From a virus, in the IMG/VR virus record IMGVR_UViG_3300031673_000563, positions 1 to 21,323 of that record: DNA of 21,323 nt. One strand, written 5' to 3'. Both the position numbers and the translations under genes were made by a program. Each line of letters starts with the position of its first letter. The first letter of the stretch is position 1. Below are positions 1,056-2,817 of this stretch, piece after piece. The notes under the pieces were generated by a model, which made no database searches, had not been told where the DNA came from, and saw only the letters and a list, made by a program, of their open reading frames with translations.

Positions 1056-1667
1056 TTATTCCAGTGAAAGTAAATGATCAATAACCCAAATATTTGTATA
1101 ATAGACACCTGCATTTTTTAGTTGTTCTGTTGTTTCGGATAAATCTGAAGAAATTGCCTTAGATGCTTCGCGTACTACATGAACATCATACCCTAATTTG
1201 GCTCCATCAATTGCAGTTTCTTTGACGCAATAATCAGTAGCTAATCCCGCTATATACAGTTCTGTTATTTTTCTTTTATCGAGAAATTTTTGAAGCCCAG
1301 TATTTTCAAAAGCGCTATAACCTGGCGATCGATTCTTGATTCCCTTCTTAAAGATATAAAAATCTTTAGCGCATTTTGATAAATCTAAGCTTGGATGAAA
1401 TTCTGCGCCAAGAGTATTTTGAACACAATGATCCGGCCAAAGCACATTTCCTTCAAAAATATCAAACGGTTGTTTCCCGGGATTCATTGAGGCAAATCCA
1501 TCATGATTTTCTGGGTGCCAATCTTTTGTAAAAATTACCAAGTCAAATTTTGGGAGAAGCTCATTTATTTTAGGTATAATCGTGTCTCCCTCTGGTACAG
1601 CTAAAGACCCTCCTGGGCAAAAGTCTCGTTGTACGTCTATCACGACCAAAGCACGTTTAGTTTTCAT
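1056..1667 (-). CDS. pncA: Nicotinamidase/pyrazinamidase (isochorismatase family).
   Basis: N-terminus ALVVIDVQRDFCPGGSL with the catalytic Asp. WHPENH metal-binding segment. Catalytic Cys in LYIAGLATDYCV. These are typical PncA signatures, and the 203-aa length fits. Confidence 0.85.
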   Translation of the reverse strand: MKTKRALVVIDVQRDFCPGGSLAVPEGDTIIPKINELLPKFDLVIFTKDWHPENHDGFASMNPGKQPFDIFEGNVLWPDHCVQNTLGAEFHPSLDLSKCAKDFYIFKKGIKNRSPGYSAFENTGLQKFLDKRKITELYIAGLATDYCVKETAIDGAKLGYDVHVVREASKAISSDLSETTEQLKNAGVYYTNIWVIDHLLSLE

Positions 1668-1689
1668 AATATTTCATATTAATTTATTT

Positions 1690-1926
1690 TTATTTTGGTC
1701 TTCCATCTTTTTCCCATTGTTTAATTTCATTCATTTGATGTTTAGTTAATTCTTTTGCAAATTTTCGAAATAATTTTCCATATTTTTCTTCTTTTTCATC
1801 TGTCCAACCTCCGTCAGGAATAACCCCAATATCGATTAAGTGAGATTGTATCAACATCTCGTTTAAAACTTGAAGTCTAGTTTTTAATGGAATTTCTTTA
1901 AGACGTATACATAATTTATTTATCAT
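1690..1926 (-). CDS. Hypothetical protein (78 aa) between pncA and nadE.
   Basis: ORF track. Basic/charged small protein. Confidence 0.45.
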   Translation of the reverse strand: MINKLCIRLKEIPLKTRLQVLNEMLIQSHLIDIGVIPDGGWTDEKEEKYGKLFRKFAKELTKHQMNEIKQWEKDGRPK

Positions 1927-1944
1927 TATATTTAGATATTTACG

Positions 1945-2817
1945 TTATTCAATTATTATATTTCGTTTTAAATTAAAAGGATTGTTTCGTTTGAAATGTG
2001 TTTTAAAATGACGTTGAATAACTGGATGAGAATATAGTTTTTCATAAATTGTCATTCTTTGTTTTTCTCCAATATCATCTAAAGATAACCATACTTGAAG
2101 TATTCTATCAACTTCTTTATATCCATTTCTTGAAGTTCCTGACCAATCTGATAGTATTTGTCCTAAATCTCCTGTATTTGTAACTCCTAATCCATCGGTT
2201 GCTAACGCATTAATAGATTGTTCTATGACAGCTTTTTGATCAAGATATGTACATTCATTCTCCATTATCCATTCTGCTATATCATAAACTTCAGTTTTCC
2301 AAAGTTCTTGTATCATTCCATAATCACCAACATCTCCATGTAAAGTCCAGAATCCAAGAAGATATTCAGTATAATTATCAGTTGAAAGAACCAATCCTTT
2401 GTTTAATGATGCAAGATTATAAAGATAAATCATCCTAAGTCTAGCTTTTATATTTCCTAATCTAATTTTCCAAGCCTTATCATCAAATTCTGATTTTAAT
2501 TCGTTCGTAGTTACTTCTTGAAGTTTAGGCATTAAAATTATACTATTCTGAACCCACTGATCTTCGGAATATTTTGTACAAAATATTTTTCCAGTAAGAT
2601 TTGCACGATCACGTTCATCTTTTTTATTTGATTTTGAAGGTAACCCTACACCAATTAACGGTATATTCAATTCATCACAAACTGGTTTCGCAAGAGCTGC
2701 ACATAAACAACTATCCATTCCTCCTGAAATTCCGATAACTAAAGATTGAATATTATAATCTTCAATGTAACATTTTAATCCGTTACGAATATTTGATATT
2801 ATTTTTTTGATATTCAT
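1945..2817 (-). CDS. nadE: NH3-dependent NAD+ synthetase.
   Basis: PP-loop ATP pyrophosphatase motif GISGGMDS near the N-terminus. 290 aa with no glutaminase domain. The overall pattern matches NadE. Confidence 0.85.
   Translation of the reverse strand: MNIKKIISNIRNGLKCYIEDYNIQSLVIGISGGMDSCLCAALAKPVCDELNIPLIGVGLPSKSNKKDERDRANLTGKIFCTKYSEDQWVQNSIILMPKLQEVTTNELKSEFDDKAWKIRLGNIKARLRMIYLYNLASLNKGLVLSTDNYTEYLLGFWTLHGDVGDYGMIQELWKTEVYDIAEWIMENECTYLDQKAVIEQSINALATDGLGVTNTGDLGQILSDWSGTSRNGYKEVDRILQVWLSLDDIGEKQRMTIYEKLYSHPVIQRHFKTHFKRNNPFNLKRNIIIE

Follow-up and report, generated by a model that had tools for sequence, protein, structure and literature searches.

Bacterial immune systems commonly end in the depletion of NAD+, and experiments have proven three pathways by which phages rebuild it. 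NARP1 (Adps and Namat) produces NAD+ from ADP-ribose pyrophosphate (ADPR-PP) and nicotinamide, NARP3 (PnuC and NadR) imports nicotinamide riboside, and NARP2, the Nampt and Nmnat of Vibrio phage KVP40, abolishes Thoeris and DSR2 defence in experiments (bioRxiv 10.1101/2024.02.11.579819). Concerning the deamidated Preiss-Handler route, a survey published in Microbiome in 2024 described 174 jumbo phages, assembled from animal gut metagenomes, in which a salvage or Preiss-Handler pathway is complete (PMC11662467), and pncA, pncB and nadE appear among viral auxiliary genes in other literature as well. The chromosome of Pseudomonas aeruginosa carries a pncA-pncB1-nadE operon without nadD, which is up-regulated by the jumbo phage PA5oct during infection (PMC7318152). 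Here we describe a 21,323-nucleotide stretch of viral DNA (positions 1 to 21,323 of IMG/VR record IMGVR_UViG_3300031673_000563; 21.3 kb, hereafter the window) that carries genes for a nicotinamidase (PncA) and a homologue of NAD+ synthetase (NadE). We consider it probable that the window contains the beginning of a huge-phage module for the salvage of nicotinamide to NAD+, in a phage that is related to the Mahaphage clade and probably infects Bacteroidota, with one step left to the NadD of the host.

The first-pass annotation of this DNA had proposed a two-enzyme cassette, pncA-orf-nadE, at positions 1056 to 2817. The three open reading frames (ORFs), with exactly the same coordinates, and the identities of PncA and NadE were borne out by ORF calls, Pfam, NCBIfam and solved relatives. 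The cassette itself turned out to be a truncated view of a larger module. Almost every gene of the window lies on the minus strand, on which the order of transcription is nadE, orf78 and pncA. An identical NadE protein is encoded on five metagenome contigs from five different samples, and the longest of these (L001, 57,754 bp) extends the locus beyond the left end of the window (window position w corresponds to L001 position 12818-w, the window being the reverse complement of that part of L001). On the same strand of L001, pncA is followed by a 126-amino-acid (aa) ORF, a radical SAM gene (294 aa), a 50-aa ORF, a 160-aa ORF (orf160), a gene for nicotinate phosphoribosyltransferase (PncB, 385 aa) and a macro-domain gene (147 aa). 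PncB scored above the cut-offs of two equivalog models (479.3 bits versus 379 for NF003704, and 459.7 versus 269.55 for TIGR01514), and its N-terminus is NAPRTase_N and not of the Nampt type. On the basis of these scores and this domain, the protein is PncB and not a Nampt or Namat in the style of NARP1 or NARP2. As for the pncB and nadD equivalents that had been suggested for a search in the rest of the genome, pncB is thus present 2.3 kb past the window edge, while a nearby nadD equivalent was not found.

The arrangement was then examined in six relatives, contigs of 376 kb (JBINOG010001830.1), 405 kb (Ga0209668_10000002), 133, 77, 72 and 26 kb. All six carry, in this order, genes for a TROVE/Ro-like protein, a dCMP deaminase and NadE, none to three small ORFs, and pncA. 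In all six, pncB is found 1 to 5 kb beyond pncA, with one copy cut by the contig end and another interrupted by an in-frame TAA. The NadE orthologues in these loci are 55-61% identical and the PncA orthologues 50-56%. Retention of the module order in six contigs at 50-60% amino acid identity indicates purifying selection over the long term, and the E-values together with the conserved synteny place the module far beyond chance. A radical SAM gene is situated between pncA and pncB in L006, L008 and L018, and is frameshifted in L007 (12103-12115). As read from gene order, the conserved unit is NadE-PncA...PncB with an upstream deaminase, often enclosing the radical SAM gene, and not pncA-orf-nadE. 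Genes for PncA, PncB and NadE are also clustered in the gut phage MT835470, the 735-kb LR756501 and Bacillus phage G, and the dCMP deaminase gene adjoins nadE in LR756500 as well. Two further genes were seen among the relatives: a gene for a PnuC-like transporter of nicotinamide mononucleotide (NMN) or nicotinamide riboside, 2 kb downstream of pncA in L016 (13831-14430), and a small Pribosyltran-family gene upstream in L017 (2541-3077). These suggest that the region gathers NAD- and nucleotide-related genes.

The primary structure of PncA was compared with those of solved enzymes. Residues 6-178 matched the Pfam Isochorismatase family PF00857 at 1.1e-30, and the best solved relatives were the nicotinamidase from Acinetobacter baumannii (2wt9, 5e-46) and PncA from Pyrococcus horikoshii (1ilw, 2e-41). 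Asp11, Lys108 and Cys147 of the phage protein align with Asp10, Lys94 and Cys133 of 1ilw, which we take to be its catalytic triad, and Asp49, His51 and His80 align with Asp52, His54 and His71, presumably its metal ligands. An Asp-x-His...His metal site distinguishes nicotinamidases from other hydrolases of the isochorismatase family.

In terms of NadE, the protein matched the Pfam family NAD_synthase (PF02540) at 6e-32 and exceeded the cut-off of TIGR00552 (107.7 bits versus 63.65) over model positions 2-246 of 251. The PP-loop Ser31-Gly32-Gly33-Met-Asp35-Ser36 (SGGxDS) is invariant in ten clade members, as are an STDNxTE...GFWT..GD block, Lys174, a TDGLG block and a C-terminal FKRxxP motif. 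The first-pass annotation had held open that catalytic residues might be lost in full alignments; those of PncA and NadE were all retained. The 290-aa protein carries PF02540 only, with no glutaminase (CN-hydrolase) domain, and Pfam scans of the window revealed no nitrilase-like ORF. Following the classification of ammonia-using and glutaminase-bearing enzymes (PMC3376133), a single domain without glutaminase indicates the ammonia-using type. A homologue search returned more than 5,600 relatives, and the best 120 (query aside) were about 290 aa in length and 49-63% identical, nearly all metagenomic and some on very long contigs. A search for related loci among viral contigs with NadE confirmed nothing.

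We could not identify NadD, NadM or NadR in the window, in L001, or in about 10 kb around nadE in the six relatives and LR756500, either with scans for the HIGH/ISxT motifs or by tblastn, for which NadD from E. coli and one NadD and one NadR from phages served as queries. The same methods did recover NadD in MT835470 (gene order PncA-orf-PncB-NadE-AAA-orf-NadD-Nudix) and a NadR-like gene beside pncA in the 735-kb phage. When the phage NadD was used in tblastn over the whole phage collection, LR756500 was not matched. The two uncharacterised families in the best position to conceal such an enzyme, that of orf78 and that of orf160, which is also met near pncB in three relatives, gave a probability of about 0 in profile-profile comparison with NadD. 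Because no adenylyltransferase is encoded near the module, the conversion of nicotinate mononucleotide (NaMN) to nicotinate adenine dinucleotide (NaAD) is most likely supplied by the NadD of the host, and the P. aeruginosa operon, which has no nadD, is a precedent for leaving the adenylyltransferase to the host.

The pathway that we propose would have four steps. PncA would deamidate nicotinamide to nicotinate, and PncB would convert nicotinate, phosphoribosyl pyrophosphate and ATP to NaMN. The essential NadD of the host would then form NaAD, from which the phage NadE would generate NAD+ with free ammonia. The effect would be to sustain NAD+ in infected cells by reuse of the nicotinamide that is freed on NAD+ cleavage, whether by NADase-type defences or by ADP-ribosyltransferases. 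The substrate of NadE, the timing of expression and the benefit against defence systems are points that we infer.

Concerning the lineage of the phage, a DNA-level search with window positions 1-6700 against 50,697 phage records gave no match. At the protein level, LR756500 is the best phage match for both NadE (49%) and PncB (50%). The window also encodes an 822-aa MVP-like protein (MVP_shoulder at 1.3e-26, Vault_3 and SPFH), whose homologues in the phage collection are confined to LR756500 (462 kb, 53%) and LR756501/LR756503 (735 kb, 49%); a vault-like shell protein is unusual in phages. The Mahaphage clade includes the 735-kb genome, for which the predicted host is a member of the Bacteroidetes (PMC7162821). 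Most window genes are not preceded by a Shine-Dalgarno sequence, the relatives encode SprB-like and TonB-dependent-receptor-like proteins, and the best solved relative of the macro-domain protein is from Bacteroides thetaiotaomicron. Based on the MVP-like homologues, the Mahaphage prediction and these three features, we infer that the DNA comes from a huge phage that infects Bacteroidota and is a relative of the Mahaphage clade.

Several points weigh against a phage salvage module completed by the host. As seen, the phage pathway is incomplete, having no adenylyltransferase; about 30 kb was read of a genome that is probably several hundred kb. The score of PncA was 151.8 bits, below the cut-off of 174 of the NCBIfam nicotinamidase equivalog NF008623; this model derives from enterobacterial enzymes, and we read the low score as a probable sign of divergence rather than of lost function. 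orf78, the zinc-ribbon ORF and the macro-domain gene were found in none of the six relatives, and the small ORFs are not conserved. In L017, pncB contains an in-frame TAA (12729) and the dCMP deaminase gene is frameshifted (9048-9057), so that the module would be dispensable in some genomes, unless these are assembly errors. Whether NadE acts on NaAD or NaMN cannot be read from its sequence, and its similarity to solved structures does not discriminate between the two. Finally, a route of four steps, requiring more ATP than NARP1 or NARP2, may be too slow against an active NADase.

The lesions in L017 and the frameshifted radical SAM gene of another relative would also be expected if the genes were passengers recently captured from a host, or were decaying or non-functional. 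We regard this as very improbable, as the active-site residues are all intact in the window's genome, NadE is identical on five contigs from different samples, and the order of the orthologues has been kept across contigs diverged to 50-60% identity. Their composition also matches that of the phage; the GC content of the module genes (0.29-0.36) is close to that of the window (0.29), which argues for long residence. Another possibility is that the NadE homologue is an NMN synthetase, and that NaMN is converted to NMN and then to NAD+ by an NMN adenylyltransferase of the NadM or NadR type, with no involvement of NadD or NaAD. NadE homologues with NMN synthetase activity do exist, as in Francisella tularensis, where NadM replaces NadD (PMC3376133). 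The phage NadE is divergent, falling under the cut-offs of three narrower equivalog models for single-domain NadE (110.7 versus 255 for PRK13980 and 76.8 versus 250 for PRK00768, for example). It is also roughly as similar to 3fiu (3.8e-13), which we take to be the F. tularensis enzyme, as to canonical NadE, and the related 735-kb phage has a NadR-like NMN adenylyltransferase/kinase gene beside pncA. On the other hand, the surroundings of the module in seven loci of the lineage yielded neither NadM nor NadR, and TIGR00552 is satisfied over its full length. The FKRxxP motif invariant in the clade is presumably the counterpart of the NaAD-binding HKR motif of canonical NadE, and the NadE of the 735-kb phage, only 31% identical to that of the window, is of a different type. 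Taking these together, an NMN synthetase appears improbable, and we retain the route through NaAD.

What the module is for is a more evenly balanced question. The first-pass annotation had suggested counter-defence against NAD+-depleting immunity. SIR2, TIR and SEFIR NADases all yield nicotinamide. This, and the fact that NARP2 defeats Thoeris and DSR2, make counter-defence plausible, and by analogy we rate the likelihood that it is a real, selected function as approaching an even chance. The module could instead be a general auxiliary metabolic set, supplying NAD+ for an NAD+-dependent ligase, ADP-ribosyltransferases and the redox demand of a long infection, and perhaps also complementing hosts without nicotinamide salvage, with no specific gain against NADase defences. 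We see this as a serious possibility, somewhat short of an even chance. Such clusters are mainly framed in this way in the 2024 survey, which reports that the pathways of phage and host complement each other (PMC11662467), and the salvage genes of KVP40 raise NAD+ without any defence system (bioRxiv 10.1101/2024.02.11.579819). The module is also set among genes of metabolism and translation (dCMP deaminase, AsnA, PTH2 and tRNAs), and a four-step route is slow and costly. Against this, the same biochemistry in the form of NARP2 does overcome Thoeris and DSR2, and a DarG-like macro-domain gene is coupled to pncB in the window's genome. The success of NARP2 means that metabolic and counter-defence roles are not exclusive, and the evidence at the locus does not separate counter-defence from a general boost of NAD+ supply. 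A bolder proposal would be that PncA-PncB-NadE of Mahaphage-like phages constitutes a fourth, deamidated NAD+ reconstitution pathway that omits the adenylyltransferase by design, using host NadD, and protects against SIR2, TIR and SEFIR NADases in Bacteroidota, with the macro-domain protein handling ADP-ribose adducts; in a stronger variant, the orf160 family or the radical SAM protein would supply the missing step or a new one. We consider this rather unlikely.

The features of the locus are collected in Table 1. As the module genes are on the minus strand, the zinc-ribbon ORF and the dCMP deaminase gene, which had been placed after the cassette in the first-pass annotation, are indeed present but precede nadE in transcription, as does the 81-aa ORF. 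The stop codon of the zinc-ribbon ORF overlaps the start of nadE, and the gaps among the genes from the deaminase to pncA are 0-22 nt. This tight packing and overlap, together with the position of the only terminator-like hairpin in 1-7000 upstream of the block, make it plausible that the block is co-transcribed as one unit, in agreement with the co-expression that had been suggested. The hairpin alone is weak evidence, as shuffled sequences gave a mean of 2.4 such sites. A search for Bacteroidetes-type promoter motifs gave nothing above chance, and a sigma-70 promoter scan no excess over shuffles.

Table 1 Positions of the module genes, their neighbours and other features (window coordinates unless L-numbered contigs are given)
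Feature	Position	Strand	Evidence
nadE, single-domain NH3-type NAD+ synthetase homologue, 290 aa	1945..2817	-	PF02540, TIGR00552, PP-loop
orf78, small three-helix phage protein (predicted), 78 aa	1690..1926	-	homologue family, AlphaFold2 model
pncA, nicotinamidase, 203 aa	1056..1667	-	PF00857, solved nicotinamidases, aligned triad and metal site
zinc-ribbon ORF (CxxC...CxxC), 63 aa, lineage-specific	2814..3005	-	sub-threshold Lar_restr_allev match
81-aa ORF between dCMP deaminase and zinc ribbon	3005..3250	-	gene call
dCMP deaminase, 155 aa, conserved nadE neighbour	3258..3725	-	PF00383 at 1.3e-21; HAE and PCDDC motifs
126-aa ORF downstream of pncA	444..824	-	phrog_21015 (function unknown) at 2.8e-24
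radical SAM gene, first 147 of 294 codons, leaves window	1..441	-	CxxxCxxC in translation
radical SAM gene, complete	L001 12377-13261	same as pncA	PF04055 at 8.7e-9
orf160 family, 133-160 aa	L001 13474-13956; L007 13094-13561; L017 14094-14561; L018 14106-14507
pncB	L001 13959-15116	same as pncA	NF003704, TIGR01514
macro-domain gene	L001 15113-15556	same as pncA	DarG-like match, phrog_335
terminator-like hairpin after TROVE gene, possible upstream limit of transcription unit	4866..4893	-	terminator scan
TROVE/Ro60-like protein, 566 aa	4927-6627	-	homologues in six related contigs
PTH2-type peptidyl-tRNA hydrolase	13316-13627	-
AsnA (aspartate-ammonia ligase)	14315-15313	-	equivalog level, 371 bits versus 293
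MVP-like protein, 822 aa	16074-18542	-	MVP_shoulder, Vault_3, SPFH
tRNA genes (five)	11153-11226; 12060-12140; 12183-12256; 19888-19973; 21230-21305	-

The ORF between nadE and pncA had been counted as a member of the cassette, but orf78 could be found in none of the six related NAD loci and is not conserved in the module. It has no match in Pfam, NCBIfam, PHROG or PADLOC. In an exhaustive HMMER search, 55 representative homologues were retrieved, which are about 77 aa long and end in a conserved WEKDG(K/R)P motif; one of them is encoded on a T4-like contig that carries a Gp23 capsid gene and no NAD genes. The AlphaFold2 model consists of three helices (pLDDT 93.5) and found no significant fold match, whether against the PDB or against viral models. 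A role as a pathway component was ruled out, considering that orf78 is not syntenic in the relatives, has no enzyme-like fold and belongs to a family that occurs without NAD genes. Judging from these comparisons, it is a small phage protein that merely happens to sit in the operon. The match of the zinc-ribbon ORF to Lar_restr_allev (0.0048) is weak. The 81-aa ORF was called at this length on four of the five contigs with identical NadE and at 104 aa on L003, and library searches of the PHROG/PADLOC type gave no family match. Among the six relatives, homologues of the 81-aa and 126-aa ORFs were present in L016 only.

The dCMP deaminase keeps the HAE and PCxxC motifs. A natural in-frame fusion of dCMP deaminase and NadE was found in a 459-aa metagenome protein (P0081, from a related sequence cluster of 41 members). 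We considered this as a sign of a functional link and judged it insufficient, since fusion of neighbouring genes reflects proximity and not a shared pathway. Downstream of pncA, the radical SAM protein showed weak NrdG/QueE-like matches; sequence searches revealed no relative with a solved structure, and we found nothing that connects the protein to NAD. In four loci, a member of the orf160 family lies beside pncB or beside the radical SAM gene. The family has no library match; a homologue search with orf160 returned only itself, and a single-sequence structure model (pLDDT 33) was useless. The macro-domain gene overlaps the pncB stop codon. Its product is DarG-like (DarG/TARG1-type ADP-ribosyl glycohydrolase, 1.5e-13), matches the common phage family phrog_335 (3e-55), and could remove ADP-ribose adducts, such as those left by DarT-type toxins.

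The TROVE/Ro60-like protein, 64-80% identical in the six related contigs, is encoded by the most conserved gene of the region, above the NAD enzymes. A search with Rfam detected no Y RNA nearby, nor any other family besides the tRNAs. One of the five tRNAs has the anticodon CUA (amber-suppressor type) and was labelled tRNA-Pyl by ARAGORN. In other gene sets, TAG recoding is a known trait of relatives of Lak/Mahaphage phages. TAG recoding as the cause of the split genes was ruled out here, as the stop within pncB of L017 is TAA and TAG terminates 3 of the 36 window genes. Scattered among the metabolic genes, on the minus strand, are four endonuclease-like or zinc-finger genes (6653-7333, 11362-12006, 9823-10857 and 20248-21165), two of them GIY-YIG/NUMOD3 homing-endonuclease-like, one with C2H2-zinc-finger and DUF7487 domains and one DUF559 endonuclease-like.

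How the locus relates to the described NAD+ reconstitution pathways was then considered. That it differs from NARP1 and NARP2, as stated in the first-pass annotation, was confirmed and holds for NARP3 too, as none of their gene pairs was found. Pfam scans covering the window plus 8 kb downstream detected neither a Prs-like Adps nor a Nampt-like Namat, the phosphoribosyltransferase present being of the NAPRTase type. Nampt and Nmnat were both absent from Pfam scans of the window and L001 and from the NadD/NadR searches, and no PnuC-like or NadR-like gene was detected by Pfam scans in the window or L001. With NARP2 the module has in common that classical salvage enzymes would rebuild NAD+ from nicotinamide. 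NARP2, however, is an amidated route of two steps, from nicotinamide to NMN and NAD+, complete in the phage, whereas the route proposed here runs through deamidated intermediates in four steps, and none of its enzymes is an orthologue of those of NARP2. NARP1 and NARP3 are alike in being phage pathways that restore NAD+ against NAD+-depleting immunity.

The novelty of the cassette had been overstated, as phage Preiss-Handler clusters have already been described (PMC11662467) and are annotated in Bacillus phage G. In this cultured phage of 497 kb, gp273-gp283 include a Nudix protein, an isochorismatase hydrolase (PncA-like), nicotinate phosphoribosyltransferase, KptA, nicotinate-nucleotide adenylyltransferase and NAD synthetase. 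As in our locus, PncA-like, PncB and NadE genes are clustered on one strand. Phage G differs in encoding its own NadD, none being seen at the window locus, in its Firmicute host against the probable Bacteroidota host here, and in having no macro-domain or radical SAM neighbour; identity is 25% for PncB and 31% over half the length for NadE. The "NAD-jumbo phages" described in silico in the 2024 survey carry pncB-nadD-nadE clusters, many of them in phages of Bacteroidota, and a phage pncA is mentioned; the role proposed there is NAD+ supply for propagation together with counter-defence (PMC11662467). Such phages were counted only if the pathway was complete including nadD, whereas the lineage of the window has PncA, PncB and NadE without a nearby adenylyltransferase. 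The closest parallel in this respect, the P. aeruginosa operon, has the same three genes, lacks nadD and uses the housekeeping NadD (PMC7318152), but is chromosomal and regulated by the host, while the genes examined here are phage-borne and interspersed with phage ORFs.

Particular to the lineage are the seeming absence of an adenylyltransferase nearby and the conserved synteny with the deaminase and radical SAM genes; the coupling of the macro-domain gene is seen in the window's genome only. As it stands, the locus is one more, partly host-dependent example with conserved synteny, and not a new principle. If the deamidated Preiss-Handler route does work against defence, it would extend counter-defence by NAD+ reconstitution, as known from NARP1 to NARP3, to a route that needs one host enzyme, and its reach to the huge phages infecting Bacteroidota, which are hard to study.

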